A stretch of 64,000 bases of DNA from NCBI GenBank assembly GCA_965178125.1, contig OZ237749.1:558001-622000 (forward strand), written 5' to 3'. The DNA is from Bilabrum cf. latius (Eukaryota). Shown here in pieces: positions 1-64,000 of this stretch. The stretch's first letter is position 1. Each line of letters opens with the position of its first letter. The position numbers and the translations under genes are program-made. A model generated the notes under the pieces. The model saw nothing but the letters and a program-made list of their open reading frames with translations, ran no database searches and was not told the DNA's origin.

Positions 1-3000
1 ACCAGCAAGAATTCGTAGCACTACTCGCTGGTCTTCACCATGCCAAACGGGAAGGAGATCGCCGTGAAAAATAGCAGCAGGAAGAGCGTCTTATCTGGAA
101 AGGGTGCCGATGAGGGTCTCGATACGTGGTGCAAGCAGACGTTCTTGTCCGGGGAGTCATACTCGAGCGTGGTAGGCAAGCAACAAGCAGGCTAGCTCAC
201 TCCGCGCGTGTCTTCGGATCGCTATGACCGCGCCCGCAAGGCAATAGAGCCATTCATCTTCAAGCACTTCGAACAAGTGCTCGCCAAGCACAGGGACTTG
301 CTCAAATCTCAGCTCGAGGCGGAGCATAGAGCGACTGGCAAGGGCGCCAACCTGGCTATTGCGACTGACGGTGCATACCAGTACAGGGCAAAGCTATCGT
401 CGCAGCGAGCGATTGTACTCATGTGTGGTCGAGCTAGCCCGGCTCACGAGTGGCTTTTGATTGATCTCGCCCTTGCGGAGGCGGCGAACCGTGCATCAGA
501 TGTCAAGAAAGTTGCTGAGTCGCTCGGCGCAACTGGTGCGACCTTGGAGGATGGCAGCGACCTGCCTGACATTGACAAGTTGCTGTGTGTCTCAGAGCTA
601 GAGGCCAAGCTACAGGAGGAGTTTACCCTGCACAACCATTCTGTCAGTGACTAGACCGAGCAGAGGTTTGGAACTGCCTTCCCAGAAGGGTTCGGACCAG
701 CAGCAGTGTACAAGGTCCTCTGCAACTCGCAGGCAATCGAGACGATCATGCACGAGGTTCGCGGACAGAGCATCGGAAAATTCATTCAAGAGATCGAGGC
801 AGTCACTAAGCTTGCCAGCGTGACGCTAATTCATGACGGCGACTCCGCCAGTGTTGATGCTCTCCGCTCCGCCATTCTCGAGTTCACGAAGGTGCTCATC
901 CTAGTGTCGTACGATCTGTTCCACAAGATGAAGTCCGAACAGAAGTATGTCGTCACGAAGGGGGCAATAGATGATGCTCGCCTTTTGGGGAACCCTGCAT
1001 GCGAAAGAGCGGCAGCATCGCTTCAGTCGTTCGCACATTTGCTCCGACCGACTGACGGTGGTGCCCCGCCCGCAGCTGCTCTTGCATTGCCGCAACCAAG
1101 CACGGATGATACCGTCGCTGTATTCATTCCTGGGACGAGGTCTGTGATTAGTTGCACATACACTGTTCCTGTTGACGGCAAGGTGGAGGCTAAGGGACTT
1201 CTGGCAGCGATCAAGCACGGCATGTCTGCTGAGCAGTGGAAGCCGTTCAAGGGGCTTACCCTCGATAAACTGACCACCAAGTTTCGGTACTTTGGCGGCA
1301 CTTCTGCAACACTATCCGAGCAGCAAGGTTACCGTCCGATAACGAAGTTCGAGAAGAGTTCACACTCCTATCAGTTTATGCCAGCTGCAGGCCGTCGTCG
1401 TCGGGCGTGCACTCGACCGAAGCATGGGAAGGCAAAACCGAGAGCGCCCAAATTCTTCGGTCCAACGTCGTCATCCTCATCTAGCTCTAGTTCGTCATCT
1501 TCATCTAGCTCTAGTTCGGCAGTATCAGCTGCAACAGCTCCGATTATACAGGCGCGCACGTCAGTCACGAGCCACATTGCCACGCCGGTCGTCACCACCA
1601 AAGTGGCTCGATACATTGCTCGACGGAGCAACGCAAGCAGCACCCGAGCGGACGTGTCAGAATTTGATCGCATCAGTAGGGAGCGGAAAGGTCTGGGTGA
1701 TGGTATTACGGAGGCGCAAGCAGTTGCTTGGCTTGAATGCAACCGACAGGGGGGCGTTGATGCTCATGATGGATTCGAGAGTCTCATGCTCAATGGTGTG
1801 GCCAAGCTCCCTGTTGACGTGGCATTGTAGCTCATGATTTGGATTCTTCACTTTGCAAAGGATGGGTACGGTTTGTGGGCTGCAGAGTACAGAACGGGGT
1901 ACAAGCCAGCACTGCTTGGTGGCTCTGTCGACTGGGTGCTGCAGCACGTTAGCAAGAGTGACCTCATGGTCATTGATTTCAAGCGCTGGCATTTTATTGA
2001 CTGGAGGGGGAATCAGGGCCAAATGCCAATGCCAATAGTGAGTACCCCTAGCAAGGGCTCTAAGGTTGCGCTGCAATGCGCAACCTACGCCGTGTGCATC
2101 GAGAAGGCCACCAGCCTCAAGGTCAGTAAGGTGGGTGGGCTCGCGCTCCGAGAGGGGCAGGGCGACGTATTCAAGGCCATTGTGGAAGCAATTGACGCCA
2201 GTCCAGCAATGACAGATGGTGAAAAAGTGAGCGAGGTCAGTATGCACTTTTGCGGCTTACTTGATGTATCTTCGGGGGGCCCGGCCACGCAGGTGCGCAG
2301 GGAGACCCAGGGCGAGTCTACCCCAGTGACATTGGGTGAAGTAGGAAGGGGCCTATAGCACCCTACAGGTGGATCCATACGCATCCATCATGCGAAGTCT
2401 AGTCATGCTCACCGTGTTCTTGTTGTCCCTGAGGAATATGACGATGCAATTGCTGGAAAGCACTCTGGCAATTTGGCTGTCTGGGAGTACCCGATCAAGA
2501 AGGCAGCTGAACTGATCATCACCAACCAAGTCAGATACTACGAAGACACTGCAAAGTTTTTGAAGACGTGTCTGAGTGTGAACCACCGGTTGGTTCGCTA
2601 GTTCCAACTGGGCTAGATCTCCATCGCGGAGATCTCTCGGCAGCTGAATATCGAGCTCCTGGCCCAGAGGCACAGAGCCAGAAGGGTATCAGCTGGTCTT
2701 CCACCCACGTATGGATGTAAAACTTCTAGTACGGGCACTTAGTAGTGTTTGCACCCTGGATCAGCGGCCCAGCTGACGTGTGCCCATTCTGGAGCACCTG
2801 CTCCAGCACGTGTGTCGATCGGCGCGGATGCGACGGGAGTCGCCGAAAGTATGGAGTTGGCCAAGTAGAAATCCCCCCATGGCAGCGATGAACTATTTGC
2901 AGCAGACTCTGAGGTTCAGGCCGTTCTCCGGGCGAAATTGGCAGCAAGCACGAAGGCTAGCTCCGAGCTCCACGCAGCCCTAACCGATAGGTAGGCGGAT

Positions 3001-3885
3001 GGCTGTCCCACCGCGGAGTCGTACAGAAAAATTTTCAACACGGCAACCGCTGTTCTGGCCAAAAATGCCAACCGGATGACACCAGTGGACGCAGCGAAGG
3101 GAATGCTTCAGACCAAGTACCGCAAGGCGTACTCGACTGCAGCAGGGATCGGCAGAAGCCTACTTCGCGCTGCGGGTGGACAGGCTGTAGCAAGCGTCGC
3201 GCAGAAGAAAGCGAGCTCAGCATGTTATCGCCTGTACTTGCGCAATGCATGCGCGCACTATGCAGGCCATCACGCTCTCTGTGGCTGCAGCGCTGGTCGG
3301 TCGTGCCCAACGCACGAGGCGTCAATGGACTACCATCCCATGGCTCCCTCGTACATGCACGATCCAGCGAAGCCATCTGGTGCTCACAACAAGGGAGCTG
3401 AGTTCTTATTCAACATGGAGGCTACGCTGATTTGCAAGACGGATGAGGATATAATCCGGCTGGTGGATCACAACAACACCTCCGCTGTGGAGCAGTACAA
3501 TAAGCAGTTCAGGATGTTCACCAGCCGAGACGACAACCACAAGGAGAGTTTCTTTGCGCTGGCTATGATTGGACTGCTATCGCAGATCGATAAGGGCTTT
3601 CGATCCTCAATAGCAAAGGCTGCAGGCATCTTTGTGTCACCGCTTGCCCAGCAAGTCGACGAGGTCCGGACAAGGAAACAGGTTTCCAGCCGTTTGCGGG
3701 CCCTTGATCCGGCTAAGCGAGCGATATCTAAGATAAGATCAAGACAGGACGCCATTGTCCGGAAACTTTTCATTGGAGGTGACTACAAGAGAGACGGAAG
3801 GGTGCGCGGGATCGATCATCTCACCCCCCTCGGGTGGTACGTCTTGCTTACGGTTGCATGCAATGGAATCGTTAGCAGCTACTGA
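1..3885 (+). CDS. Mutator-like (MULE) DDE transposase, 5'-truncated by the window edge, >=1294 codons with 11 in-frame TAG
   Basis: Track ORFs 208-654, 706-1830, 1834-2358 and 3076-3885 share one frame, which is open from base 1 to TGA 3883-3885 except for TAG at 16, 193, 652, 1828, 2356, 2599, 2614, 2740, 2743, 2866 and 2992. Motifs match Mutator-like transposases: IATDGAYQYR (first Asp), LIHDGDS (second Asp), YDLFHKMK (C/DxxH), HYAGHHALC and NNTSAVEQYNK (Glu). Confidence 0.75.
1468..1518 (+). repeat. 24-bp tandem duplication encoding a poly-Ser tract
   Basis: TCGTCATC(C/T)TCATCTAGCTCTAGT occurs twice, followed by TCG. Confidence 0.85.
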
Positions 3886-4156: not shown

Positions 4157-4180
4157 AGACTGGCACAACCTGACGAGTGC

Positions 4181-4740: not shown

Positions 4741-7700
4741 TCACCCACCCTCAGGATCAATGCTTGCATCTTGAAAGATCAGCTGACCAATTCGACTAGC
4801 AATCGCGTCCCATGAGTACGTCTCGATGCACTGCTGCCGCATGGCGAATCGCTTGGCCTCGAAGCGCGCGGGGTGCTACAGCGCATCTCTGGCAGCGCGC
4901 ACCACGGCATGCCAATATGCTTTCGAGAGATGCAACTCTAGCTGACGATTACTGCTTTGGTTGGACATCGCTTCACGCACCTCGCTGTTGCCGAGCACAG
5001 CGTCTGCTTGCCTGGCTGCGAGCAGCTCATTCATCTGGAGGCGAGCAAGCCCGACGTCTGCTGTGGGCCCCAGAGATCCAGCGGACCAGCTCTGATTGCT
5101 TCCTCGCTCATCAGAGTTTCGATTCTGCTGCGCGAACCCATCTTCAATGCTGCGATTGTACGGCTGTTCGGCGGCAGTAGTCCCCCTTGGGATCCAGCCC
5201 TTGCGAGCAAGCACCTGCTCGGCGCGAAGCCCCGCGTCGAACTGACCCACAATCTCGGGTAGTGCCGTCAGCGGCCATCCGATTGTTATGGGCACAGCGC
5301 CTGCACACATGGCTTTGACAGCTACTGTGCAAGACGTCTCTGGAAACGTGCTAGGGTACAGCCAGAAGGAGGCCCGTGACAGCCTGTCCTGCAGCTCAGA
5401 AGCCGGTACCATGCCGCGGTAGTCCACTCCTGGCAGCTAGAACAGCTCTGTGATCTAGCGCTTCCACTCCCAGTAGGTACTTGAGACGGCCGATACGAAA
5501 GAATCAATCGATTTTGTGAAGCCGTAGTATACCTCAAGCCGCGCTTCCCCGCCCAAATCCTTGTAAATGTACGGCCAAGACTCGAGCACCATCTAAAGGC
5601 CCCGCATGGGGCTAGAGGCATACACAAACGTCAGCATGGGGGGCTTGGCTACGAAAGGTCGGACCAGGTCTCTGGAAATGCCGTTGGTTAGGATGCCCAT
5701 CCAGGGCAGTGGGTACCTCAAGGGAGTCGGCGGCAAGCTTGGGTTTGCAATCTGCTTCGGCATCGAGTGCCACACGTGGAATGCCGAGCCATGGAAGACT
5801 CTACAGGCAAATTTCGAGTGCAGTCCATCCCCCGACCTAGGTTCGCTTGATTCGGTCTCCTGCAGATGCCCATCCACAAGGTCCTGTAGCCAGATCCACA
5901 CGCTTTTCACGTTGGGCAGAGCGGCACCTTGCAACCTGTCGGCGCACTAATGGCTATCCCACGGTGCGATGCACTCAGAATCGATTCTGGTATCCACGTG
6001 CTGCAGTGGTACCAGCGCATCGGCCACCGAATGTGTGTATCTGTATGCGACAAACACTGTGGGGATGTTACACCTTGCTAGCCTCTCCTGCACCCCCTTG
6101 GTTTTAAACCAATACGCACCACTGTGCCAACTGCCGGTATATGAGTCTGGTACTGTGTCCGTGTGCACTTCAATCATGATCTCAGGGGACGCTCTATGCA
6201 GCGCAGCCACCAATTGCACGACGGCCTCCTCTGAACCACCAAGTGACTTGGGGCCGGGCTTGTCCTTCGATTCGGAAGGATCGATAACCCACGGACCCCA
6301 CCCGGGAAAGAATGCGTTGCCGTACTCCTCCGCCTGAATGACTAGTCTGACCTTATGATGAGGCGTGATTCCGCACCCGTCACCCAAAGAAGGGGCACTG
6401 TAGTGCATCGGCAGTCGCAGAGGTGCTTCATGCGCGAGAAAACAGCGGTGGTACGACTGTGCTGAAGCCAGGGCCCAGTAGCTCTCGTCGCCGTACTAGC
6501 CAGGTGGCACGCTGTATCCTGCCCGCCTCAGCCCAGCAAGCCAGCTCACAGAGTTGTACGATGCTATACTAGTGGGAAGCGTGCGCAATAGCCTTTGCAC
6601 GGCCACTGGTATAACAGAACATTCATCTGTGGTGAGCCATGGACGGTGCTTTTCGCTGGCTGTCTGTAGATAGGTAGCAATGCTTGTCCCACCGAGGCTC
6701 CGTGCATCGCTCACTTCTGTGCCACGGTGATCCAATCTAGCACCAGCACCATCAGTGCGCTCAAGAGTATCAGCGATCAGTGTACTGCAGTGGTAGTGGT
6801 GCCTGTGCTTGAGCCATTCGAGCCCCACTCGCAGAAATCCACTGCTTAGTCCAGCACCATCACCACCGCATACACCATCAGCGAACCGGCTGATAGAGTC
6901 TGCTTGCGGAGGTGAAGAAGCTGCTTCGGGACCTGCATCTGGATGCGCCCAAGATTGGCTAGCCCGCTCCGAAGCCCTGCCGATCGCCTGGAGCAGCCAA
7001 GCGGCCGAGTGCCCGTACAGAGCCGGGAGATCCCCCGAGCACTGGCTGCTCCCATTAATCGCGGACACGAGCGTCCGAGCGAGCGAGTCATGCAGCTGCT
7101 ATCGGGTGGCATACGATGCTCGCGCCTTACACCAGGCGCCCCGCAGTTCCCTACCTTTTCTCTCAATCCAATCCTCTAGCAACGAAAGCGAGCCCTGCGC
7201 TTCGGCACATACGTCCATCGCAAGTGCAATGCGCAAAGTGCTGCCGTTTGCGACCGAGAATGATGCGCTACCGGTGGCTTCGAGCAGCTGGCCGAATGAC
7301 TCGAGAGCGGCTTTCATTGATCCGACATGCGAGTCGTACACTTTGCACGACAGAGGGCTCTCTCGACTGGCATGCCACAGAGCTAGATGCAGTCGGTTCA
7401 TCACAGCGCCTGGGGTGTCAGCAGCAAATGACTCGACCTCAGCTTCGACTCGATGGAGCTGCGAGCTTGATCTGCTTGGTACGGTGGGGTTGACTGCATT
7501 CTCCAAGCTGCCCAGTACCTGCAGCAGCTGCGAGGGAGCATCGCCCAAGCCGTGGCCAGTCGATAGCTCAGCCCCAACTTTGGCGTGGTACGGGAGCCAC
7601 CTACCTCGGTACCTCCGGACCTGCGAGGCCCTCACCTCCCAGGCGATCCGCATGGACCTCTGCACAGCCCGAGTGGTGCCCCCGGCATCGAACAGACTCG

Positions 7701-10700
7701 ATGTGAGGCTGGATGCCGCCAGGTGCTGCTTGGCTGTCACCATGCAAGCGTGGCACGATGCCAGCCTGCCAGCCAACTGCTCATAGGCCCGCATGCTGTG
7801 TGGTGCCATTGCACAGTGCATCCTGCGTCGAAGCGCCAAGTCGAGGCCACTACTCGATCTGCCAGTTGCAGCAAGCCCGCATCCGTGGGCATTGAAGCCC
7901 GTCGGTGTGTGTGCCGCGGCACCCAGTGACATGCCTACTCGGGCAGCAAATCCAGGCCCTGGCATCGTCACCGTTGGAACCGCCGCCCACAGCGCCTCGG
8001 CACCGGTGCTGTGCATGTTGTACGTTGTGGAATCCAACATCAGATCTATGGCCGCGATCCGCTCGCGGTGTTCGGCGAGACCCACGTGCCCAGCAACCAC
8101 GAATCGGTGGGGTTGGATGCCCCTTGCTGCAGCGAGATTGATCAGCCGGTCGGTCTTCTCCTTGCTTCCGGAGCCGATCACGATCATGACGCACCTAGGA
8201 CAATGCCGCAAGATACCAGCCCAGGTGTCGAGAAGGAACGGCTGTATGCGACTCACATGGCCCACAAATCCAAGATGAATGCGCTTGCTGCGGATGGACT
8301 TGCTAAACGGACCGGCACCGATCACTTGCATGCTTCGGTCAAGCTGCACCAACCGCCTCCTCCAGCGTCCAGATATTGCAGCGCTTCCTTCCGACCGCAT
8401 CTCAATCAGCCGTAGAAACCCATCGGCAGGAACAGATGGCGACTGTAGCGTGGTTTGGTAGGTGTTCGGCAGGATCAGCATTCCCTCGGACATGCCTGCG
8501 CGAGACACCCTGCCTGTGCCTCGCTCGAAGGCGTGAGGCAAAGAGCCGAGGAGCTCTGCCCGAGGATCCAGCGGGAGCACTCCGCCTCTAGAAGCAGCTG
8601 TCCTACCAAACGATGCGTGATTCTGCCTGCCAGTCAGCTCCACTGGTGGATCAGGAGGTGTGACAAATCGATCCACGATGGCGTAGTCAGCATAGCTGTC
8701 GGCGGCCGAGCCGGGATACCCGAGGTACTGAATCACGATCTTGCCGGCTCGTCGCACGGTGAAGTCGAGGTTCATGTTGCTCGTGTGGCCCATGAAGTCG
8801 AGCACTATATCAGAGTGGCTGCCAGGCTGGATGTCCTGGAGGTCCGCGCGACAGCTAGTTGTGCCGTGCTCAGGTGGGATGGAATGCAACAAGCCATCGC
8901 ATAAAGATCTAGCTGCCCGAGCCATGCCAATTGTGTTGGCAATTATAGCAGTAGATCCGTCCTCAGCATGTACCAACGAACATGGGATCCGATGGATAGA
9001 CCCCCAAAGGGAGTAGTTGTATGCCTTTTGCTCTTCTACCGTGTCCAGCTTGCGTACGGCTTCCTCGCACCTATGAATACGGCTAAATGCCACTACCTCG
9101 CTACCTGCCCGCAGCATACCACCAGTTCTTGCCATTTTACCCTCGGCGAGGTGGGCAGAATCTATGCCAGGGACCAGCTGACGCCAGCCCATGGAGGCCA
9201 TCTGTGCGATGTGAGTTGCTGTCAGGAGCGGGTTCACCTGGAGAGAACCCAGCCATTCCGCCGCTGTCTGTCGATCGCGCGATCGCTCCCACGTTTCATT
9301 GAGCCAAACAGATGCAGCGGTAGCGTACTCTGCACCCTGACTGCACTCTCGCAATGCCGCATTTGCCGCCGCCGATTCGAGCATGGGTGGCCAATGCGAG
9401 GGTCGACCGCCATTGCACATTGCAGCTGGTGGCCTGTCCATAGGCCCATACATCCATGCTTGCAGGGCGATGCTGTTAGTGTCAAAGTGAGGCAACATGC
9501 CAGTGATCATCGACCCCATGGCGTGAGTTCGCATGTCATACGACATCGCATTCACCCGAAGCTTGCGCGCGTTCCCGCCTCTCACGATGCGAACACCTGC
9601 GTGGGTCCTGGAACCCCGCATGGCCTCTGGCACAGGGCCTAGAGCAGGTGGGACCACCTTTCCTTGCTGCACCTGTGCCTCCTAGCCGACCATCCTTGGC
9701 TGAAAGGACAAGCCTTTGACGATAGCAATTCCTAGCCTGAGTTCGGCCGAGGACACCAGGTAGGACACGTCATACACTATCATGCGACCCGAATCTGAGG
9801 CTGTATTTCCAACAATCTGACGTGCATAGACCCCACACGATTGCGCTAGTGCATCCAGGCGACGCTAGCGACTACCAAGGTCTAGTGTCCAACCATCTCC
9901 CGGGCCCTGGAGCAGCGTCGACTGGCACTGCACGACCGCTTCCAGCATGGCCAGCCTCTCGTCTGATATCCCAACGAGAGAGCGGTGCAGCGATGGGTCT
10001 AGGAATGAGTCTCTCTCGGGACCAGACGCAAACCACTGCAGCAGCCTCAGTGCCGACAGCTCCGTGGCTGCTTCTGCCGGTGCGAAACACACAGACATCG
10101 CCTCGGGGCTGCCGGGGGTCTGCACCAGAGACAGATCAGCTGCATTGTCTAGAGCCCCGAGCAATTTATCTCCTTCCAGCATGCTCTTTGCATATGATAC
10201 TGAATCAAATAGCTGCGATCCATGTGCCCCAGTGCTGGTGCTGCTCTGCGCTGCACGGTCCTGCATTGCTCTCACAAAGCACTCGAGCCCCTGCAGCACA
10301 AGCTTGAGCACCTTCCTCAGCCCGCTGAGACAAAGCTCGTATGCCTCCCATCGATATGATTCCTGCAAGACCTTGCACACAGACATGAGCGCCCCATGCA
10401 GTCGGGGCACCCGCGCCATCACTGCCACGGTCGATCGCAGCTGCATCGCTTCGACCTCTCCTCCCGACTTGCCCTTGCTTTGGGCACCCTTGTTGAAGTG
10501 CAGGTCGATGTTGGCAAGATTGAACGTGGCAGCAGAGCGCGCTGAGCTGGTGGTTAGCTCCTCTGGCATGTCCAGCATCAGACTGTACCACACCTTGGCC
10601 ATCTCGAACGAGTGCTGGTTGACGTGGTGGTTGCCCACTTCGATGAGAGCGACGAAATTCGTGCTGGGCGAGCCTGCAGACACAGAGGCCAGCTGGGGGG

Positions 10701-14150: not shown

Positions 14151-14294
14151 CCCCCCCCCTACCACCGGCACCGAGCTCACCATTCCCCCCCCCCCTACCA
14201 CCGGCACCGAGCTCACCCTCTCCCCCCCCTACCACCGGCACCGAGCTCACCCTTCCCCCCCCCTACCACCGGCACCGAGCTCACCCTTCCCCCC
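14151..14294. repeat. Four-copy 34-36 bp C-rich minisatellite (Cn-TACCACCGGCACCGAGCTCACC)
   Basis: The core begins at 14159, 14195, 14229 and 14263, separated by C-runs of variable length. Confidence 0.95.
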
Positions 14295-14800: not shown

Positions 14801-14853
14801 TACCAATTGCAGCGCACGTTTGGGACCTTCTAGACCACCACTCCTGTACAGGG

Positions 14854-21816: not shown

Positions 21817-21920
21817 GCACTGCAGGCACAGATAGTGGCTTGCGAAGGATTCATCTGATCACAGCGAGAAGGAGGATGATTCATCACCCGCCGGCGCTGG
21901 CCTGGCGGGAGATCTGGAGA

Positions 21921-44388: not shown

Positions 44389-44398
44389 AACAGGAAGG

Positions 44399-50900: not shown

Positions 50901-53900
50901 GCGTTGCTGCGGATCTCCAGCACGTCCCCGTCAGTCACGCGAGCCGACGGGTTCTGCTCGAAGTGAGACACGAACACCTCTCGGTTGGTGCCCAGACCCT
51001 CGGGGGTCACAAACACGATCTCGTCGTCCTGATGCCGCACGATGGTGGGCTGGCCCGGGCTCCACAGACTCCTGGACTCGCAGCCCTCGGCACCAGTCAC
51101 TGCCAGCTCCGACTGCGCCACGGCCGAGTCGGGGCCCAGCTGGGAGGTGCCATCCAGGCCTCGCGCCACGGAGAGGCACGCCCGGTAGAACTGCACCGCC
51201 ATGCCGGCCGTGGGCAGCACGCCCCGCGGCAGGCTGCTGGTGCCCATGTCCAGCTCGCCGTCGCCCTCGGGGGTGTGCAGGGGCAGCGGCACGCGGCCTG
51301 CCTGGAAGGTCTGCGCCGCGGACTGCAGCACATTGGGGTTGGTGATGGGCCCGCGGCCGAAGTTCCTGCCCTTGAGCACGAGCTGCGCCCCTCCCGCCGT
51401 GGGGATGTCAAACACGCTGTTGGGCAGCGCCTCGATCGAGTCGATCTCCGGGTCGTTGTACTGGAACGCCACACCCTCGATGCCGACCTGTACGCCCCTG
51501 AGCTTGGGCCCCTGCATGGCGCCCTCGGGCTGCTGCCCGCGCACGCGCAGGGTGACATCGCGCATGCCAACGCCCGGAGGCATCAGCAGTCGCACCCTGT
51601 CGTGGGTCCAGCTCAGCACGTGCCCGTGCCACACCTCGCCCTCGCCGTACACGGTCTCGGATTGGTCGCACACGAGGTTCCGCAGGCGAGTGCCCAGCGG
51701 CGCCGCGCCCTCCTCGGCGTCCCTGTTGGGCCACGCCACAAAAGCGCACGAGGTGTCGTTGTCCCTGGCTCCAAAGTTCTCGCCGTCCAGCTCGACCTCG
51801 TAGAAGCCCGCCGCGGGTCCGCGGTGCACCGTCACCTGCGTGCTGCCGTCCTCGGCCTGCACCACCTCCTGACTGGCAGTGGCAGCGTACACCGTGGCGC
51901 TCGTGACAGTAGGCTTCATGTACGCGAAGGCGTCCTGCAGCGGCTCCGACTGCACGCCGGCCACGCTGACCACTGCATCCAGACGGGCACCGGTGCCCTC
52001 AGCCAGGGTGCACTCGATCTCGTCGTAGGCGGGGCGGTTGGCGGGCGCGGGGATGCGCACGGGATTAGAGCAGTTGAGCATGCCGGGCGCGCTCATGTCG
52101 GTGATCTCCTGCTCGGCGGCACGTTCCTGGGAGAGAGGGCTGTCACGACCGATGTGCACGGCCAGCTGAGCCGCCACTCCAGTGTCCACCTGCAGCGGGC
52201 TGGGCTCGCCGAAGTTGGTGCCGCGCACAAGCACTCGCACACCGCCACGGGTGGGTCCCCTGGGCAGGCCGTTGAGGGTCACGCTCTGGATGGCGGGGGG
52301 CGTGTGGGAGTGCGCCATGGGCTGCGAGTCCTGCCCACCCACCGTCACGCGGTAGGCAAACGGCATGCCTCCCAGGGCCGGGTCCGTGCCGTCGCCCTCG
52401 CCCTGGGGCACGCGCAGCTCCAGCATGGTGTGCGAGCGGCTGCGGCGGGCCGGGTCCTGGGTCGTGTGTCTGCACGCAGATGTCTCGTCCTGGTACTGCT
52501 CGCCCAGCTCGAACATGTTGCCGAAGCCGAGGCGCACCTGAGGGCACAGACCGAAGTTCTCACCCACGATGCGCATGATGGCCCCTCGAGTTGGTGTGTA
52601 CACCACGCCGTCCGCTGGAGTGAACACCTCGTCGGGCTGTCCCGATGGGTTGGCCGACGTGTCGTGCCAGACCTGCACCTCCGTGATGGACGGAGGCGCG
52701 TACGAGATGTACTGCGGACCAGACACGATGCCATCGCTGCCGGACGAGAAGCGCTGCACCACCACAGGCACCTGCGAGCCGTCGTTCACGAACTCGCCGC
52801 GGGGCCCAGCCGGCATCACGCAGGCGATGTCCCACTGCATGCCTCCATTGTCCGCATCGATGAGCGAGTTGTAGCTCGGATTGGCATCCACCTGGGCCTG
52901 CAGGATGACAGTGGGGAAATCGGCATCCGACACGGTCTGCGACGGGTCGGAGGGCAGCACCAGCGGGCACGGCTGCCCGCCAACGTCCACCTGGATGCTT
53001 TGCGCCTGCCCGATACGGGCCACCTTGAGCTCAAGGACTTCCCCTCCCGCCGTGCTGAAAGCATCGGCTCCCTGCAGGCCTGCCACTTGCGGAGACACGT
53101 CGTAGTACTGGGCAGCGGCAGACGTCTGACTCTTCTCCATGGCACCATCGTACGACAGCGAGCCCAGGTGAACCTTCGCAAGCCCAGAGTCCACATCGGT
53201 CATGACCTCGATCACGGTGTCGGTCCAGTCCACCACCTGCACGCGGCCTGGAGCTGCCGAAAAGTCCGCTGGATCGTCCGAGGGCGCGATGAGCACCTTG
53301 CGCTCCACCTGGTCGTTGAGCTCCTGCGCCGAGGCACCGAAGTTGCGGCCGTACACGCGCAGCAGCTTGATGCCCTCCTGTCCAGGGAACAAGTTGGCCC
53401 GTTGGTTGGCGTACGGTCCCGTGGTCCCGATGGGATCCAGCGAGAGGAAGTCGATCGAGGGGTTCTGGTAGGTGAACACCGAGGGGTTGTTCACCACCAC
53501 GGACGCGTTGATGAGTCCCTCGGTCACCATGGTGGTGTAGGCCGACATGTCCACGGCGCTGCGCAGGGCCAGCTGGGGGAAGCCAGCTGGCGAGTTGACC
53601 AGCACCACCGCCCTGTCCTTGCCCACGCCAGACGGCAGCGCGAACTTGACTGTCTGCACTGCCTCACGATCGTATCCGGCTGGGTATGCAGTGTTCCCTG
53701 CCGACGGCTCAAAGCGGGCTGTGCCAGACATGGGCTCCGTGGTTGAAATGCCGCTAGAATCCGTACCATCTGCAGCGTGGCCGAAGTCGACTGTCAGCGT
53801 GGATCGGCCGTCCGCGAAACCAAAGTACTTGCCGGTCACCTTGATCATTTGGGGGCTCTCCTCGTCCTGCTCGGCGTGCCCGAAGGCAGGCGAGATTGAC

Positions 53901-56900
53901 ACGATCTCAGGGGCGGCGTATGACACCGTGGTCTGGGACTCGGTGGACTCCTGGTCGGCCACCACCACCACGAATCGCATGTCGGCACCCACACCGGGAG
54001 GCACCCGCACTCTGATCCTGGAGTGGTCTGTCATGATGCGGTACTCCGACTCGGGCAGCACGTACTGGTGGGCCCCGTTGCCGAAGCGCACCTCCTGCAG
54101 CAGCTGCTCGTCTCCCGACGGCCCGAAGTTGCGGCCCACGAGCTCAACGTAGTCTCCGCCCTCGGGGCTCAGCTGTCGGTCCTGAGGCATGGCGGGCATG
54201 GGGTCCACCGAGATCGGCTCGCCACTCACCGTGGCAGGGAACAGCCCAGCCCCGTTGAAGCGCTCGATCGAATCGATCACGGGCAGGGCATAAGCAGTCA
54301 CAGGGTCTCTGGAAGTCAGCCCAGCCACCACCATGGTCCACTTGAGGTCAGCACCGCCACCCACAGCCAACTCGCACTGGATCCGCTTGTGATCCACCAC
54401 CATGCTGCAGCTGCTGCCGTCTACAGCGAACGTCCTGATCTCGGGGTCGATCGCATTGCCGCTCTCGTCGAAGCGGGCCATGACCAGCCTGTACGAGATG
54501 GCCACCTGAGCGTCCATCACGGGGCCGAAGTTGTCGCCGTAGATCTCGATGAGGTCCCCGCCCTCCGTGCGACCCTGCCTCACCGCGTCAATGTTCTCGG
54601 CATCTGCCACGTCGTCGAAGCCCGCAATGGTGGGGGCCGAGTAGCTCGAGTTTGCCTCGAAGATGGCCTCGGTCATCTGCCCGCCCACGCGCAGGGCCCA
54701 AGAGTAGCCTGCACCGCGGCCCGGGATGAGCCGGCAGTTGACGCGGCTGACACCGTGCCTGGCCGGGTCGCGCACAACTTCGCACGCCCCCGTGGCCTCG
54801 TCCTGGTCCATCTCGTACAGGCCGCTACCTGCCGGAAAGTCGCTCTCCAGCCCGAACTGCACCACCTCGATGGCGTTCATATCCACAGGTCCAAAATGCT
54901 CGCCGTCGATCTCCACCAGATCGCCCCCGGATGTGGAGGCCTCCTTGGCACCAGGCCCGAATACGCGTGTGATTACTGGCGGCAGGTAGCTCAGCTGCTC
55001 TGAGGATGGGCTGCTCTCCAGGTCGAATGCGGTGGACACCTGTCCGGGCATCACCACCTTGAGGCGGTGGTTCCGGCCCACGCCAGCCCCCGTGGTGCAC
55101 GTCAGCCTCGTGTGCTCCGATCCGACGTCCTTGGTGCACGTCACATCGCTCACGTACTCGTGATCTCCGATGCCAGTCACCAGCCCGGGGATGGTGCTGG
55201 GCCTGGTGCCATACGACACGCGGGGCACAAGCGCCCTGGAGCTGATGTCGGTCATGGGCCCGAAGTTGCGACCCTCCACCACGATAGTCTCGCCGCCAGC
55301 ACTGTCCATCGAATCCAGGCCGTGCATGGCTCCGGCAGGCACACTCACACTCGTCACCACAGGAGCGGCGTATTCCATCTGGTCAGCAGCAGCCACCTCG
55401 GACACAGTCCCGCCCACGCGCACGTACAGGCTCAGTCCCTGTCCGTAGCCCTCACCCGTCCTGACCCTCAGCTCGTCGTACTCCACCCCACCCGCCTGCA
55501 CAGCCGCCACGAAAGGCAGGTCATCAAAGTCATTTGCATCCAGAGATCCCATCAGGTCGGACTGAAAGCCGTACCTGACCTGCACCAGATTCAGGTCCAT
55601 CCCTTCGAAGCCCAAGTTGGTGCCAGTCAGGATGATCGTCTCACCGCCTGCTGTGCTCATGGGTCGTGTATTGACGAGGTCGTTCGGGCCGGCGATGGAG
55701 GTCACGGCAGGCGCTCCGTAGTCGGCGAACAGCGGCTCGAGGGTGCGCACTTGTTCTCCTCGCATGACCACGTGCCAGCGCAGGCCTCGTCCCACGCCTG
55801 GAGGTACCTCGCACGTCATGTAGTCCAGGTCGTTGCCATCATCGTCCATGTCACCGCTCTTCTTCACCACGCAGTTGGTGGCATTGTACGACAGCTTGGG
55901 CGTCATGGTCACCGATTCGTACCACACCTTGAGGTCGGTCGTCTCCACGAGGTTGAGTCCGAGGATCCTGACGCCCTGGGTGCGCCCCCCGGCAGTCCCC
56001 CTAGTCAGCATGGCCCGGTAAACGTAGTCTTCCTCTTCCCGCACTTGGTTGTTGCACTGCCCGTCGCACACCTGCACGGCGGTCAGCAGAGGCTCAGAGG
56101 CGAGGTCGCGCGCGGTGAGGTCTGATGCGATGATGACCGTCTGCTTGCCCACGGTGGGAGTCGACACGCGCCCGTCATCGGCCGCCAGCTCGACCTCGTA
56201 CACGCCCCTCACTAGCCTGCCCTCGTACTCAATGGGGTACATGGGGTCGTCTTCCTGGGGGGCCGTGTGGTAGGTCAGGTCCACCTTGAACTCGAGTTGC
56301 TTGGTGCCGGTGGGATCGTTGGTGGCTGGCGTGTCACGCAAGTCGAAGATAACATCGTCCGAAGGCAGTGCTTGACGAGTCTAGGACGTGTCGGTGAGGA
56401 AGTTTCCATCCACGAACGGCGCCAGTCTGGTCACTGAAAGGATGGTGTAGTCGATGTCGTCGCTGTCCTCGTCATCTTGCTCCAGTACGGCAATGGGGAA
56501 CCCCACGGTTGCATTCAGCTCACTTACCACGTGCACGGTGGCGGGGACGCTAGGGGGGTCATTCACGTCGTTGAGAGTCACGTTGATGGCACGCCCGTCG
56601 TTGAGGCCCTCTGCATCCGCCACGGTCACAAAGAGCAGGTGCTCCCTCTTCTCCTCGTAGTTGAGCCCCTCCTTGGCCACCGACAGCTGGCCCGATGTCT
56701 CACCCATTGCAAAGAAACCATCGTCATTGCCAGCCAGGATCTCCCACGTGAAGTCTGTCTCACCGTCTGGGTCCGTGGCGGTGAATGGCCCGGGCAGCAC
56801 GTTGGTACCCACGACAGAGTTCTCGTCTACAGTGACCATCACGGGGTCCATTTGGTCCATGACAGGAGGATCATTGCGGTCCAGCACGTTAATCGTCACG

Positions 56901-59872
56901 TCAATCTCGCTGGCAGCAACATCCTTGCCGTCCGTCTTGCCCACCACAGTGATCACGTACTGGGTCTTGACGGCATAGTCAAGGATGGCGTTCGCCACCT
57001 TGATCTGGCCGTCGCACAGCCCGATCGTGAACGCGGAAAGGAAGTTCCCACCAGCGTCCTTGGCCTGGCCGTCGTTGTTCCCTTCCGGCTTGATGGACCA
57101 CAGAATGGCCTGGTCCTCGCTCAACGTGGTGCCCTGAATGGGGCTGCCCACCAGCGTGCCGGGCATCACGCGCTCCTCCACCTCCAGGGCCCCAGCAAGG
57201 TCAGGAATCGTCGGCGGTGCCGGCTGGCACTTGGTATCCTGGCCACCAAAGCTGCCGAAAGTATCACATGGGCGCAGCTCGTCCGAGCCGGCGACTGCAA
57301 TATAGCCAGCCTTGCACTGGAACTCGCAGAATTCGCCTGTCACCGTCCCATCGCACTGCGTGTTGTCCTTGCAGTCGGTCCACACCTTGAAATCATCAAT
57401 CTGCACCCCATCACCGTGCGCTGCAAGACCTTGCATGCCGTAATTGAGCGGAGTACTGCGGGAAGGGTCGCTGAACGTAGATACGAGCTCGTCTCCGCAG
57501 TATACCTTGATGGAGAGCGTGTCCTACTCTGCTCGAATCAGCTGCGGCTCTTCCGTGTCGTCCGTGGGAATCGTGCAGTCCTTGGAAAAAGCAACCTCGG
57601 TCTCCGTGTACTTGTATACAAAATCGGTGGGGTCGTATCCGTAGCTCCAGTAGGTCATGTGGTGCTTGTCCTCGCCACCTGTGAGACTGACTGCGTACCC
57701 ACTGGTTTCTGAGCCAGTTTTGCGGAGCAGCAGCTGCGCTCTCGTCCCCTCTGGAATGATAAACTTGGCCTCGACGTTGAGGTTGCGGCCAAACGTCTGT
57801 CGGTACGTCTGCGCACTGCCCATTGCGAAGAGGTAGTTGAAATCTGCGACGGGCGCCGAGTTGGTGGAGGAAGACGTTGACGGGCAGCTGCCTCCGGAAC
57901 TTTCCCTGTGCACCAACCGCTCGTTCTCGATCTTCCAAACGTCGCCTGCAGCGGAGATCGATGCAGAGTACACGGGCACTGGCACCAGCATGGGGTACCA
58001 CTAAGGACCTTCCTCGCTCTCCAGCTCGTCCAGGTCGTCCCCGAAGCCCATGTAGTTGTGCACGCGCTTGCAGGAGTCGGTGTTCTCGGGCATGCCCAGG
58101 TTGGAGCAGGTGCGGCCGCACCTTCCCATCCCGCTGCCCCAACTGCCGCTGTTCACATTGCCATACGTGTACCACGAGGTTCGTGTGTACGACATGTAGT
58201 AGCCTTGAGTGAAGGTCATGCCTGCATTGCAATAAAGGTAGCAGGAGCCTGCACGCGTGAGCGGCAGCGAGTAGGTCATGGACGTGGAGTTGTAGTCGCC
58301 GCATCCAGAACGACTCAGTTCGTTCTGGTAGTCTGGCAGCCAGCTGGTCGGGACCAGCTGGCTCGCGGCAGGAAGCGAGGTGGGCTTGTACTTGTTCTGA
58401 AGGTAGGTGCTGATCCGCCGCATGGTGGTGGTGTTCATGGGCTTGTCGACGGGAGAAGTGTACACCAGATACTCGGCCATGTACTGGACGCCACTCCTGC
58501 TGCGCATGCTGTACTGCGGCTCGTGGGATAGCACAATCGAGATGCAACAAGGCAAGTAGCAAAATTAGTCCCCTGGAGAGAACCCGCGAAGCCTATGAGG
58601 CGTCCATGCATACATCGTGGCAGAATGTGTCCTCACAGAGTACGGCAGACCAGCTAGGAGAGAGCTGACCACCTCGCCGTAGTCGCGCCCTATCCGGAGG
58701 CGGTGGGCTGCAATGAGTGTGGGCGAGCAGTTGCTAGGGAGCGATCATGACGAATGGCTCGCATTGCCTCTTTTCCAGGTGCTTGGCATTGCGAAATGAC
58801 ACTTACTAGAGCTGTAGTATGACGCCGAAGTAAAGTCGCTAAGGCTCGAGTAGGAGGCCGAGACTCCTTGGAAGGCCTGTTGGTTCCTTGAACCCGAGGC
58901 GGGGCTCTCGGTAATGTCGTCGTCAAGACCCACGTGGAACTGATGCTCGGTACCGACCTTCTTGGTCCAGCCCACCATGACCATCGGGTCTTCCTCTCGC
59001 CAGCCGCTGTACGCGGAGAAGCCGAAGTCGTAGGGCAGGTCCTACTTTTTCAGCGATGCCTAGGCCATAGTGTTTGACGTGCGAGATGTTCCAGATCGCC
59101 CCATGAATCCAAGAATCGGACGGTTCGTATCATACTAGTAAATGTAGTATTGGTAAGAGGTGCCCTCCCAACCGAGGTTCCAACCATTGCGAACCTGATC
59201 GTAGTAGTTCGTCCGATGTGATCGACCTGCGAGGAAGACAACGAATACGTTTCGGCTGCTTGTACGATCGTTAGGCTAGGTATCATCGCATGCATATTGC
59301 ACAACAAACATGAGTGCAGGCTTGGGATGGGCCGACATGGTGGGTACCGCTGCAAACATTTCATTAATGGACGGCTGGCGGTGCGGGAAAACGCAGGTGC
59401 CAGCACCCAGGCTGTTGCCGGGCCAACACAAAAAAGACTCACCGAAGCTGATGACCTCCCATGGATACGCCAAACTTGGATACGTGTAAGGCTAGCCAAC
59501 CGCAAAAATGTACCTGTTGTGGTTGCTGCTAATATCAATCTTCTTCATGTCGCCGGCCTCGGCCGTCGCGGGGACGTACTCCATGATGGTGGAGCTGGTT
59601 ATGTAGGCTGCCGAGAAGCAGCCAATCCGCTGGTTGTACACGTACGGTGCCATATCATGGAAGTAAGTGGAGCTGTATGCAGACCGGAAGGCCTTCCATT
59701 CGCCGGACTAGAGCTTCGCCTTGTCAGTATTCTTCTGTGTCAGCACCTGGCCGTACGAATTCCTGGAGAAATCGAGATGAACGAGCAAATCTACGTCTTC
59801 ACCGAGCCCTTCAGACAAAGGATCCATTGCAACGACTACATATCCACATAGTGCGGCTAAGAGTGCTCTCAT
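47972..59872 (-). CDS. Giant (~3,800 aa) cell-surface protein: signal peptide, LamG-like region, cadherin repeats, many IPT/TIG repeats, Cys-rich region, multi-pass TRP-like TM domain; 3 introns; 8 in-frame TAG
   Basis: Start MRALLAALCGYVVVA. Phase-matched introns at 59227-59442, 58708-58806 and 58514-58672 (donor could instead be 58636). ORFs 58001-58555, 57524-57991, 56381-57436 and 47972-56341 join across TAG. Cadherin motifs DRNDPP, VDENS, ATDPDG, LNYEEK, DVNDPP; repeated GG...I.I.G.NFG IPT motifs; C-terminal hydrophobic helices. Confidence 0.85.
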
Positions 59873-60387
59873 ACCAACCCCAGTACCCCGGCGTAGTGAC
59901 TGCGGAATGTTTTGTGATTTGAGCAGGCTAATTCAAGCAAAACGGTGCAGCACTCGAAACAATAATCGCGGAAACGAATAGAAGTGGTTGCTAAATACAA
60001 CGTACCTGGAGGAAGGGCCTTTCGAGGGCTGCTACCCTCGATTGTCAACGAAGGAAGTGAGCATGTGGTCCCGTCATCCTTCGAATCGCCGCAAATCTGG
60101 TATTTTACACCAATTTTTACACTTTACTTTGGTGCCCTGGCGGTGACCAGTGGTGACCAGTGGTGGGACGCATTTCCATCACTGCAATTCGATTATGCAT
60201 TTTGATTCTCTAGCAACCCTTAGATTCTGAGCGGTTCATGTGCCAGAAGGTACTACTTAGTAAAGGCACGCCCCGGGCCGTGGCAACTTCCCTCCGCATG
60301 TGTACAGGACTCGCAACCATCGGGCTTCTGTAAGACCCCAAAGTACGCTCAGATCAACAAATAACGCAAACCATACAGATGGGCGAC

Positions 60388-61381
60388 TCACTTCCCCCCG
60401 CCACTGCCACTGCCGGCAGCTGCACCTCGCGCTTCGTCGCGAACCGCTGCCCAGCGGTCCATGTACTTTTTCTCGCGGATATCCCATTCTTCGGCGGGGT
60501 ACTCCTCGTCCGATGTAGACAACAGGAGCCATTGCAAGAAGAAAGCGCAATTTTCCGGCGTATCAAGGGCGTTTTCCGGCGGAGGGGCACCTGCTTTGCT
60601 CACCCCGATTTTGTGCTCCTCGTAGGCAGCCTTGCTCGCCTCGTCCATGCTGCTTTGGAAGCCCCGGAACAGCCCAGAAAGCGGGAATTTATCTTCATCT
60701 ACCTCACGAATTTTATCCTGCATGGGAGTGGCGACGATCCCGGGCCGCACAGAGCCGCACATGATGCCCGTGCCTCCGAGCTCGACGTTCATGCTCTGCC
60801 ACAGCATCTTGAACGCGGCCTTGCTCGTGCAGTACGTCGTCCAGCTGGGGTATGCGCTGTCTGCGGCGCCACTGGATATATTAAGGATTCGTCCGCCAGG
60901 CTGTGTCATGCTCGGAAGCAAGGCTTTGGTGAGAGCCAACGGGGCAAAGAAATTCACTTCAAACGTCTTGCGGACGTCGTCCACCTCTAGAGACGCAAGC
61001 GGAGTCACCGGTCCGATGGAGCCAGCATTGTGCACAAGGTAGTCAATGGTAGAGCCTGTTGATTTAGCCGCGGAAGATACTGCTTCGACTCCCTGCAAGA
61101 GGCACAAGACGGCAATACTCGAAGGTGACGTGGCGGCTTATAAGATATACTAGCATATTACGAAGTCATCAAGGTATCCTCACCTCTGACGTTGTCAGAT
61201 CAGCAGAGCAAACGAGAATCTTTCCTTCTTCTGCTTCTTTGGCGAGCGCTTCAAGTGGCGCAGGACGGCGCCCAACTGCAATCACTCGAACACCGCGAGA
61301 TGCCAACGCCAGCGATAGAGCTTTGCCAATACCGCTGCCAGCACCTGTCACAACTGCATGCATTGTCTTTGCAGCAGCCAT
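60388..61381 (-). CDS. Short-chain dehydrogenase/reductase (sepiapterin/benzil reductase-like); intron 61093-61183
   Basis: VTGAGSGIG, HNAG, NISSGAA and YCTSK motifs; phase-0 intron GTGAGG...TTGCAG. Confidence 0.9.
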
Positions 61382-62252
61382 TGTATTCTGTTTCCAACTG
61401 GCAGTACAGTTACGCTGTCTACTATGGACGTCATTCGAAAATCAGATTCACTGCCGATAACTTGACGTTACCATTATTCGCGAGCGGTTTCCAGACTTTC
61501 GTAGCTAGTGTCCCCAATGGAGACAGAAGCACCATCAGCCAGGATTCTCCGGAATATGTCGATCATATTACACCCATTTGTGTCCGGAACGTGGACCCTC
61601 ATGCGACATCCTACCCTGTTTCGGCCCCATGCTCTCATTCCCGTTGGAAGGCGAATTGGTTCATCCCCAGCGATCGTCAACCAAATAACCAGCTTCATGG
61701 ATGACAAAGAACTAGCTATGGCGTCATGTACGAGTCGCGTGAGACTTTGATTCCTCTACGGTAGAGATCTCAGAGCCTACCGTCAACTGCAACTGCTAGA
61801 TTCCGCGTGCTTGGACCCATGTGCCGCAGACTTGGAACCATGCCGCCGTTGAAGAAGACAAGTGGGTATAGATTGCCAAATCCAAATGGCGGGTGGACCC
61901 TGACAACGTCAAGTCACCGGATGGGAGCCCCATGCACGCAAAAGAGGTTTGCAAACGCCTCGAACAAGGTTTCAAGTTTCTGCTAGGAAGGCAACAAATG
62001 CTGTAGCAGGCGCAGCTTGCTTCTTCTCGACTCAACATTCCCCCACTTACTGCCCTGAGTATACTCGCTGGAATCCGAGGTTGAGACCACCAGCCAAACC
62101 ACTTCATAATGGCCCAGGGCCTCCGTATCCGATCCAATACATGACTGCTTGTTTCCGTGATTTTTGAAAATTCAGGAGCCTAAAATATCTGTCCATGACC
62201 AAACAAAATTTGAACAACATCGGGCCGAGGCTCAACACCACATTTGCCAGCC

Positions 62253-64000
62253 TCACGAGCTCTCCTTGGCTTGCCCGATGAACTTGGGGTGCCTGTCCAT
62301 GTCCGGCATGATGGTGCGGCCAGAGGCCCTATCTCTTCCTAGCGGCATGAGCCTCTTGCCCATGGTCAGGGCAATATCCTCCGGCGTTCTCACGTCGTGG
62401 AAGCAATCGAATAGCGCTTGCACCACCGTGTAAATGTTCCGCCTCTTCGGCCCGATGATCTTGGCCGTGTAGTTCTGGAAGCCCCCAAGCTCCATGATGG
62501 TCTCGATTGTGTAGTCGCTGCCAGAGGGGATATCGTGACCCGGGCCCCTTGACATGAGCAGCACCTTGATCCCGTTCTTCTTGCCGACCAGGTCGTGGTA
62601 CAGCTGCCCGCGCCACGTGCTCACGTGGATCATGTCCTTATGCGCGGCTTCGGTGGCTAGCTGAGTGGCCCTCTCGGCGTCTTCGTGCCTGCCTACGCCG
62701 TACCCTATCCCACCCACCCCGTTACCTGCCACTGCAAGGCAGCGGTACGTCACCTCCATTCCACCACGGATTGTCTGCGAGCACGTAAGGAATGAATGTG
62801 GGGAGAAGGAAAAGCACCATATCGATTGGCTGGGGAAGCGCGGCACACAAAGGAGTGGGCTAGACTGTTGTAGCATTGGGCAGCAGCAGCAGCAGCCGGC
62901 GCAGCGTCCCCCTCATCAAGCCATGCAAAGTTGTCCTCAGGCCGAAGCTCGGAGAAATCTCATGTGTGGAATTTTTGCTGTTCTAATCCTCGGGATCTGC
63001 CGCGCGAAGCTTGCTATGCTGCTGCTTCTTGCTCTCTTGCCTACAAGATCACGAATGCACGCATCTCATAATGGTTCTCACGTTGTGTGTCTGCGACATG
63101 TCCAGCAGTGCCATGTCTGGGCTCAGAAGGGGGCGGTTGGGCATGACCAGCGGCTGCATGTAGAGGCGGTGCAGCTCGCGCCGCTCCACGTCTAGTGCTC
63201 GCTCCTCGGGACGCAGGGTGGGGTCTGGCTTTGGCGCCGTCTTCCGCTCCCCGTCCGATACGAGGTCGTTCTCGCTGTAGATGGCGTCCGACTCGTCAGA
63301 GCCGCGCGTGGGGATAAGGGGCGTGGCCACCTCCTCTATGGCAGCCGGAGAGACCGTGTACAGCGGCCTCGTTCCTTGCATGGGAGCGTCGGCGCCGTAG
63401 TAGTGGGGATCCATGTTGAACTCTGGGTCGTCGGAGGGTCCGTCCTCCGTGCCCGAATCGCTGCCTTCGTGCTCCTCGGCGATCACAGTCGCCATCTTGC
63501 CGTTGCCGGCCGCGTCCAGTCCGCCCACCTACAGGAGTTTCCTCCTCTCCTCGGCGTCTTGCTCGGCGCTGATGCCGCCCCCAAGGCGCTCAACCTGGTC
63601 ACCTTCGTGCGCGTTTCTCTCCCTCCTGGAGAGCCCAGCGAGCTGTTCGCTCCTCCACTGGCGCCTCTCCTCGTCCTCCACGGTACTCGCGCTGCGGCGG
63701 GACGAGCTGCTACTACCCATGGACTGGTAGTCATCGCCATCGGGCTAATCGAAGTCGTCACCGTGCTCGGCAGCGAATCCAGTGTCGGCCTCGGCAGAGG
63801 CATCGTCGCCCCCCTCGCCGTCAAAGCTCGGCAGCACCCCGATACCGCCGCCCCCATCGTCGTTGATCCCATCGCCGTCGTCTGGGTCCTCGTCCGACGA
63901 TGACTCGGAGTCGATAAGGTCGTCGGCAACAAACACGCCGTGTGCGCGAAGGTGCTCTGGTGGTGCAGGCAGTCCATACCGCTCCCACATGGACTCTGGA
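62253..64000 (-). CDS. MRPS5: Mitochondrial-type ribosomal protein uS5 with long acidic N-terminal extension; 5' end beyond the window; intron 62775-63081; 2 in-frame TAG
   Basis: S5 domain TIRGGMEVTYRCLAVAGNGVGGIGYGVG...AKIIG..RNIYTVVQALF...TPEDIA..GK. Upstream ORFs join across TAG 63529 and 63745; phase-0 intron GTGAGA...CGCAG. Confidence 0.8.

Follow-up and report, generated by a model that had tools for sequence, protein, structure and literature searches.

A nuclear genetic code that very likely reads UAG alone as an amino acid, probably glutamine, in a GC-rich eukaryote

The nuclear code of the eukaryote sampled here very likely gives UAG an amino-acid meaning, in all likelihood glutamine, and keeps UAA and UGA as terminators of translation. 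Our analysis concerns a single stretch of 64,000 nucleotides from Bilabrum cf. latius (assembly GCA_965178125.1, contig OZ237749.1, positions 558,001 to 622,000 of the forward strand), which we call the window and within which all coordinates are counted from 1. Its GC content is 57%. We regard UAG alone as a sense codon because codon counts, codon periodicity, the ratio of nonsynonymous to synonymous substitution (dN/dS), alignments with homologues, and spliced RNA contigs agree, and the same evidence bears out the original prediction, made from the letters of the window, that UAG alone has been reassigned.

RESULTS

TAG in long open frames

Frames were read from stop to stop with TAA and TGA as the only stops, a procedure that takes in 5′ parts that are possibly untranslated. 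Fifteen of the 17 frames listed carry TAG in frame, 100 times in all, close to the figure of about 90 in 15 frames that had been counted by hand. When GT92c, a near-identical copy of GT92b, is left out, 92 TAG remain in 16,981 codons of 14 frames, together with no TAA and no TGA; these two codons do not occur in frame at anything like the rate of TAG. The zero follows from how the frames were defined, and the actual test is the existence of such long frames. The two remaining frames of these genes contain 695 TGA, 289 TAG, and 109 TAA, which means that TGA and TAA together occur about once per 42 codons there and that TGA is 2.4 times commoner than TAG. Among 20 first-order Markov randomizations in which TAG was treated as sense, the longest frame was 531 codons. 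Frames of 850 to 3,530 codons that are free of TGA and TAA are thus far beyond chance. Reading through TAG raises the number of frames of at least 1,000 codons from two, under the standard code, to seven.

These TAG codons lie in genes of unrelated kinds. The GT41 family comprises GT41a, a large glycosyltransferase with a GT41/OGT-like middle part and a GT-B-like C-terminal domain (4741 to 11856, minus strand; 2,371 codons, 11 TAG, ending in TGA), its paralogue GT41b (14854 to 21858, minus strand; 2,334 codons, 11 TAG, ending in TGA), and GT41c (29814 to 34970, plus strand; 1,718 codons, 9 TAG). Genes of this trio are about 7 kb long, two of them in tandem on the minus strand and the third inverted and truncated. 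A second family of GT2_4/GT92-like glycosyltransferases includes GT92a (35035 to 37734, plus strand; 899 codons, 10 TAG), GT92b (39053 to 41623, minus strand; 856 codons, 8 TAG, ending in TGA), and GT92c (44772 to 47342, minus strand; 8 TAG), which is offset from GT92b by 5,719 nt. The longest frame encodes a protein with cadherin and IPT/TIG domains and a multi-pass membrane part (47972 to 58564, minus strand; 3,530 codons, ending in TGA) and has three TAG, at codons 188, 347, and 728.

Overall, TAG is used 5.3 times per 1,000 codons, which would be about 11% of glutamine codons if it encodes glutamine. Its density falls as the GC content of third codon positions (GC3) rises: genes with GC3 of about 0.6 have 4.6 to 15 TAG per 1,000 codons, and the cadherin/IPT gene, with GC3 at 0.84, has 0.8. 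TAG is a moderately rare codon that is avoided in GC3-rich genes. By manual reading, at least 48 of the 92 TAG are flanked on both sides by segments that have paralogue, homologue, or Pfam support.

Coding signal and selection across TAG

Coding periodicity runs on across TAG. Over 40-codon flanks of 91 of the TAG, the difference between GC3 and the GC content of second positions (GC2) is 0.130 upstream and 0.129 downstream, whereas across 14 final TGA or TAA codons it falls from 0.159 to 0.011. Within the GT41 family, dN/dS is 0.40 between GT41a and GT41b and 0.46 and 0.47 for the other pairs, calculated over 5,000 to 7,000 sites that lie nearly all downstream of the first TAG. Nine TAG columns are common to GT41a and GT41b.

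Alignments with homologues likewise run through TAG. The homologue P0109 aligns gap-free through four TAG of GT92b, and P0121 does so through three TAG of GT41a, the C-terminal homologues of which align across TAG 2088, 2134, 2140, and 2327. A Pfam match of GT92a to PF13704 (residues 380 to 534) includes TAG 411. The TGA that closes GT92b coincides with the end of homologue P0111, as does the TGA of GT41a with the end of P0119. All three TAG of the cadherin/IPT gene fall at variable homologue columns, and TAG 101 of a TRP-like membrane-domain frame (14213 to 14863, minus strand; 216 codons, 2 TAG) also falls at a variable family column (R 41, L 15, N 13, and others). When residues 1560 to 2371 of GT41a were used as a query, we obtained one weak match among proteins of similar length and seven among shorter ones. 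BLAST comparison of the ORF1, Kelch, coiled-coil, U395, M301, R804, and uS5 exon 1 frames, described below, with the homologue proteins collected gave nothing useful.

TAG in spliced transcripts

Evidence on transcripts comes from assembled Logan contigs of public sequencing runs, in particular X5 and X6 from one study and X7 from another, which hold about 55% of the sampled words. Although no run containing the stretch is on record as RNA in the run search, we take X5 to X7 to derive from RNA because their contigs carry GT..AG joints. Three such joints were found across the three runs and two studies, at 61091>61183, 61738>61830, and 62774>63082. Cover by X5 to X7 is patchy and expression-like, with none over 57341 to 59341, where the DNA run X1 is even. 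The DNA is nuclear, and the joints mark GT..AG introns of 91, 91, and 307 nt.

Each joint belongs to a recognizable gene. The first removes a 91-nt intron (about 61092 to 61182) from a short-chain dehydrogenase (SDR) gene (60388 to 61414, minus strand; 0 TAG, ending in TGA), the TGxxxGxG motif of which is whole after splicing. A second joint removes the GT..AG intron at 61739 to 61829 from a small F-box-like gene (61517 to 62084, plus strand, ending in TGA) that has TAG at 61869 to 61871 and 62004 to 62006, both in exon 2. The third lies in a mitochondrial-type uS5 gene of two exons (62253 to 63999, minus strand, ending in TGA), where splicing of a 307-nt intron (62775 to 63081, GT..AG on the minus strand) joins two frames in phase. 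Exon 1, which reaches from 63082 to the window end, holds TAG at 63745 to 63747 and 63529 to 63531, and exon 2 carries both S5 domains; a search of the ESM Atlas with these domains confirmed a eukaryotic uS5.

Spliced contigs keep the TAG at 61869 and 62004 (X5 and X6) and the TAG at 63529 and 63745 of uS5 (X5, X6, and X7), with no other letters at these sites. In GT92b/c, all eight TAG are covered, there is no joint, and no difference is listed at any TAG; the nine differences that are listed are exactly the letters of the twin copy. For the cadherin TAG at 56381 there is no clean RNA evidence. At the sites covered by these contigs, UAG is present in mature mRNA and is neither spliced out nor edited. 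TAG stands in frame inside intact, selectively constrained, and transcribed genes, and homologue alignments place one residue position at each TAG.

TAA and TGA remain stops

Of the 17 frames, 16 are terminated by TGA and the other by TAA; the original prediction had counted 14 and one, likewise with neither codon in frame. Beside 199 CAA and 513 CAG, there are 0 in-frame TAA in 17,449 codons; a glutamine-encoding TAA of proportionate use should have appeared about 36 times alongside the 92 TAG. Reading through TAA leaves the number of frames of at least 1,000 codons at two, and adding TAA to TAG gains none. We rejected a code in which both UAA and UAG encode glutamine (table 6) given the absence of in-frame TAA, the lack of any gain in open frames, and the one frame that ends in TAA. 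Within the window, UAA is not a sense codon and still terminates, and the same is true of UGA, which is by far the commoner terminator of the two. No frame in the window needs TAG as a terminator, with about 17 ends visible.

A sense reading of UGA was considered as well. Reading through TGA gives 17 frames of at least 500 codons, but these are shadow frames of GC3-rich genes, antisense or out of frame, and the idea was dropped. Antisense frames of up to 1,442 codons that are stop-free in the standard code lie opposite the cadherin/IPT gene (49418 to 53746 on the plus strand, and neighbors); these are shadow frames and not genes.

Which amino acid

We assigned a meaning to TAG by scoring, with BLOSUM62, the homologue residues that stand opposite every codon of five window genes, using only columns with conserved flanks and giving each column one averaged vote. 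As a control, the procedure recovered 59 of the 60 sense codons that had at least five columns. At TAG, glutamine ranked first and glutamate second at all four flank thresholds: 0.69 and 0.24 at threshold 3 (15 TAG columns), 1.27 and 0.83 at threshold 4 (13 columns), 1.58 and 1.32 at threshold 5 (10 columns), and 1.04 and 1.02 at threshold 6 (8 columns). The difference between the two scores is ordinary for CAG columns, and resampled GAG columns reach it in 0.03%, 0.1%, 3%, and 9% of cases at thresholds 3 to 6. Leucine, tyrosine, serine, and tryptophan score low.

Individual columns add detail. The best-conserved one, codon 411 of GT92a, adjoins a conserved YRNDDEW motif and has glutamine in three of three homologues; codon 2327 of GT41a stands opposite glutamine in P0119, an 87%-identical relative, and GT92a 884 and GT41a 2140 are also opposite glutamine. 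Two fragments from relatives, P0118 and P0113, end immediately before CAG codons of the window, which would be a reciprocal exchange of TAG and CAG if the stops of these fragments are TAG. Judging from these alignments, UAG is probably glutamine. Glutamate is unlikely, and any residue other than these two is quite improbable.

Lineage and relatives

The cadherin/IPT protein has 107 homologues, the best of which is a Joint Genome Institute (JGI) protein at 46% identity; close JGI relatives were not found in this search. Its best named match is protein P0003 of Cafeteria roenbergensis, at 48% identity over 82% of a 601-residue query region, followed by further Cafeteria proteins. Matches to this bicosoecid stramenopile are at 46 to 48% identity and concern one protein family; for the organism, "bicosoecid-like stramenopile" seems a reasonable label. 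The suggestion that the genome is stramenopile-like is therefore plausible on the strength of the Cafeteria match, although one family does not demonstrate it.

Relatives of the GT92-like family are scarce: a set of 1.84 billion representatives contains only nine, mainly short fragments, and the lineage is therefore poorly sampled. A metagenome scan for GT92 relatives returned 385 pattern matches, of which 0 were confirmed. In public protein sets, relatives of TAG-rich genes (P0109 to P0116, P0118, and P0119, matching 39053 to 41623 and 4741 to 5500) are pieces of 70 to 330 residues. P0118 and P0119 are both listed with a longest contig of 3,741 bp and cover neighboring stretches of a single gene. 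It would seem, then, that in-frame stops break up the gene calls of a related organism as well, which would mean that the code is shared and the lineage mis-annotated.

Other features of the window

The remaining frames vary in how readily they can be classified. ORF1 (1 to 3885, plus strand; 1,294 codons) is open at the window start, has 11 in-frame TAG, ends in TGA, and belongs to no family that we recognized; it had been read as a transposase, a label that the lack of any Pfam match does not sustain. A Kelch-repeat protein with a weak F-box-like N terminus (21921 to 25625, minus strand; 1,234 codons, 7 TAG, ending in TGA) had been named as an F-box/Kelch gene, and its Kelch repeats were recovered while support for the F-box fell below threshold. 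M301 (26947 to 27852, minus strand; 301 codons, GC3 0.79) has one TAG near its 5′ end. A coiled-coil-like frame (27672 to 29813, plus strand; 713 codons, 9 TAG) is the sole frame terminated by TAA, and its first five TAG may precede the start codon. R804 (42052 to 44466, minus strand; 804 codons, 2 TAG) is low in complexity and rich in repeats, with an acidic/basic module, present twice, in which an acidic run is followed by an Arg/Ser-rich run and a DDELPTQ-like motif; it gave no family match. U395 (58745 to 59932, minus strand; 395 codons, 6 TAG) has a signal-peptide-like start and no family match.

A 3-kb segment with the GT92-like gene is duplicated (38660 to 41650 and 44380 to 47370), with 98 to 100% identity per 200-nt window. 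Public contigs, from both the whole-stretch DNA run and the RNA runs, show first-copy letters at all nine listed differences between the duplicates. The second copy must then have arisen very recently, be rare, or be a duplicate made in assembly. In the cadherin/IPT gene, the RNA runs reach depths of several hundred to more than 2,000 over 48000 to 53300, with contigs that differ from the window at 27 to 32 positions per 700 to 900 nt and whose loose ends diverge as paralogues do. Such deep, divergent contigs show that highly expressed close cadherin/IPT paralogues are present elsewhere in the genome. A loose contig end at 56335 was considered as a splice site and rejected, as it corresponds to a diverging paralogue.

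The F-box-like and uS5 genes are convergent, with stops 168 nt apart. A single RNA contig (X5) spans both genes with the plus-strand and minus-strand introns removed, and their 3′ ends therefore abut or overlap. The base after the 92 in-frame TAG is C in 37 cases, T in 20, A in 18, and G in 17; with about 30% C in the window, the excess of C is marginal. C after a stop is the weakest and leakiest termination context in eukaryotes. Its presence after TAG may be a relic of read-through or an aid to it.

DISCUSSION

Our results place TAG inside genes that are long, constrained, and transcribed, and they are best accounted for if UAG serves the cytoplasmic ribosomes as an amino-acid codon, with UAA and UGA kept as terminators. 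By analogy with other UAG-only codes, decoding would be carried out by a tRNA with the anticodon CUA, which pairs with UAG but not with UAA, and which might most simply be a one-base-changed copy of tRNA-Gln(CUG). Such a tRNA is what a sense reading with UAA kept as a stop requires, an argument already made in the cases of Iotanema and of the rhizarian exLh (PMC5304391). The release factor eRF1 would be expected to have lost or weakened its recognition of UAG, with G at the third position; its stop-recognition motifs, as described in the same paper, are GTS, NIKS, and YxCxxxF (PMC5304391). The window lacks an eRF1 gene, and an Rfam scan of it returned 0 matches and no rRNA.

Several observations weigh against our reading or narrow it. 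The RNA evidence consists of assembled contigs and not raw reads, the RNA label is a guess made by the tool, and X5 was marked "probably DNA"; contigs also drop rare variants, such that low-level editing would escape. A tRNA scan of the window found no tRNA genes. Part of the 92 TAG stand in 5′ frame parts that are possibly untranslated, the first TAG of GT41c being an example. The most conserved pieces, namely, the SDR gene and both S5 domains, have 0 TAG, and therefore no TAG occupies a universally conserved site. In uS5, which had been put forward as a likely essential gene interrupted by TAG, two TAG do lie in the frame, but both fall in the N-terminal extension and not in the S5 domains. 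That extension is conceivably 5′ untranslated region, yet its periodicity looks coding (GC3 0.70 to 0.83 against GC2 0.46 to 0.52) and its frame is open. As to the amino acid, the test draws on only 8 to 15 columns, glutamine and glutamate tie at the strictest threshold, and glutamate or aspartate is favored at three variable columns (GT92a 120, GT92b 234, and GT41a 2088, the last with two E and one D among six). Between the closely related GT41 paralogues, the codons that replace TAG are TAT, AAG, CAG, TGG, TCG (twice), and GAG, and CAG is not preferred.

Could the TAG codons be nonsense mutations in decaying pseudogenes or repeats? Several TAG-rich genes are multicopy, with GT41 and GT92 each present three times, and the paralogue differences at TAG are all single-step neighbors of that codon. 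Yet 92 TAG stand against 0 TGA and 0 TAA, although TGA is 2.4 times commoner than TAG off frame. There are no frameshifts in frames of up to 3,530 codons, dN/dS is 0.40 to 0.47, GT41a and GT41b have kept nine TAG columns in common, and the genes are transcribed, all of which makes this explanation extremely improbable. We think equally little of the idea that TAG is removed before translation, be it as tiny introns that are spliced out or through U-to-C editing. The genome does have spliceosomal introns, but contigs with true splice joints keep all four TAG that they cross in the F-box-like and uS5 genes, contigs of the GT92 gene are joint-free and unaltered at eight TAG, and each TAG is matched by a single residue in homologues. 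We therefore take decay, introns, and editing to be effectively excluded.

Two other alternatives accept that UAG is sense. One holds that it encodes glutamate or, with less likelihood, lysine, leucine, tyrosine, serine, or another residue. Glutamate has in its favor the second rank at every threshold, the tie at the strictest, the three columns where E or D stands opposite TAG, and TAG 140 of GT41c, which is GAG in GT41a and GT41b. We nevertheless consider an assignment other than glutamine unlikely, if worth keeping in view, given the first rank of glutamine throughout, its presence in all three homologues at GT92a 411 and in the 87%-identical relative at GT41a 2327, the rarity with which GAG columns reproduce the observed difference, and the low scores of L, Y, S, and W. 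The second alternative is an ambiguous code in which UAG is sense inside genes and, depending on context, also ends some of them. Context-dependent stops exist in Condylostoma, karyorelicts, and Blastocrithidia, where UAR or UGA is involved. Only two of the roughly 17 visible gene ends are anchored by homologue C termini, the last sense codon of GT41c is a TAG followed directly by TGA, and C follows 37 of the 92 in-frame TAG. On the other hand, no frame of the window needs a TAG end, periodicity continues past TAG on average, and TGA and TAA are both in use; we hold such a code to be improbable. Our preferred reading is still that UAG is a sense codon, most likely for glutamine, and that UAA and UGA are the stops.

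UAG-only nuclear codes have been described in the fornicate Iotanema spirale (Gln) and the rhizarian exLh (Leu) (PMC5304391), in phyllopharyngean ciliates (Leu in TARA taxa; Gln for Hartmannula sinica as well as Trochilia petrani), and in Protocruzia tuzeti (Gln) and Scotinosphaera (Ser) (PMC11687900). The list in the original prediction was incomplete in leaving out the last two (PMC11687900). Against this background, the code change in the window is of a known and rare type, found in a new lineage for which it has probably not yet been reported. A search of full-text literature, with most subscription journals outside its reach, turned up mitochondrial cases in stramenopiles but no nuclear reassignment of UAG. 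This agrees with the proposal that the code may be undescribed, although such a search cannot prove absence. It seems to us an even proposition that this is the first nuclear code change in stramenopiles. On that view, UAG alone was reassigned independently in a bicosoecid-like flagellate lineage that is GC-rich, poor in introns, and reliant on UGA rather than UAA as its chief stop, and the change extends to one or more other sampled relatives, with public gene calls broken up at the same gene. In the unlikely event that UAG encodes glutamate, the code table itself would be undescribed, as the UAG-only reassignments reported in these sources are to Gln, Leu, or Ser (PMC5304391, PMC11687900).

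Reassignments of UAG alone demonstrate that the roles of UAG and UAA in eukaryotic termination are separable. Every independent origin amounts to a natural experiment on third-base discrimination by eRF1 and on how suppressor tRNAs become fixed, and a GC-rich, UGA-ending case would stand apart from the lineages known to date, which prefer UAA. If the organism is a stramenopile, nuclear code variation would extend to a major group that is without reports in the literature we searched. There are practical consequences too. Gene callers that assume the standard code will cut the proteins of this organism into pieces, and without the use of table 15, or of another table should that be the right one, its lineage will have wrong completeness scores, phylogenomic matrices, and annotations.

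Among known systems, the closest likeness is to Iotanema spirale (Fornicata), where UAG only is reassigned, likely to glutamine, and UAA is kept as a stop (PMC5304391). The mechanism expected there, a tRNA-Gln(CUA) together with an altered eRF1 that carries T32G in the GTS motif, would be expected here as well (PMC5304391). Unlike Iotanema, an anaerobic metamonad with UAA as its primary stop (PMC5304391), our organism ends 16 of 17 frames in TGA and has a GC content of 57%, and the evidence for its code is genomic and from RNA contigs. With the phyllopharyngean ciliates and Protocruzia it has in common a UAG-only change, which has arisen repeatedly, and a wide use of UAG as sense; it differs in that UAA is the preferred stop of those ciliates, in which suppressor tRNA genes were found, whereas TGA is the main stop here (PMC11687900). 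As in exLh (PMC5304391) and Scotinosphaera (PMC11687900), UAG has been decoupled from UAA in a nuclear code, but the leucine and serine of those two lineages score low at the TAG columns of the window. Glutamine at UAR (NCBI table 6) is known from many ciliates, hexamitin diplomonads, some ulvophytes, and Amoeboaphelidium (PMC11687900, PMC5304391); the likely assignment of a stop to glutamine is shared with that code, while TAA is not sense here. The codon table is the same as that of code 15 in crAss-like and Lak phages, in which TAG is glutamine (PMC9523058, bioRxiv 2024.02.01.578382). Unlike the code-15 phages described there, which infect bacterial hosts, the window has spliceosomal introns and eukaryotic genes.

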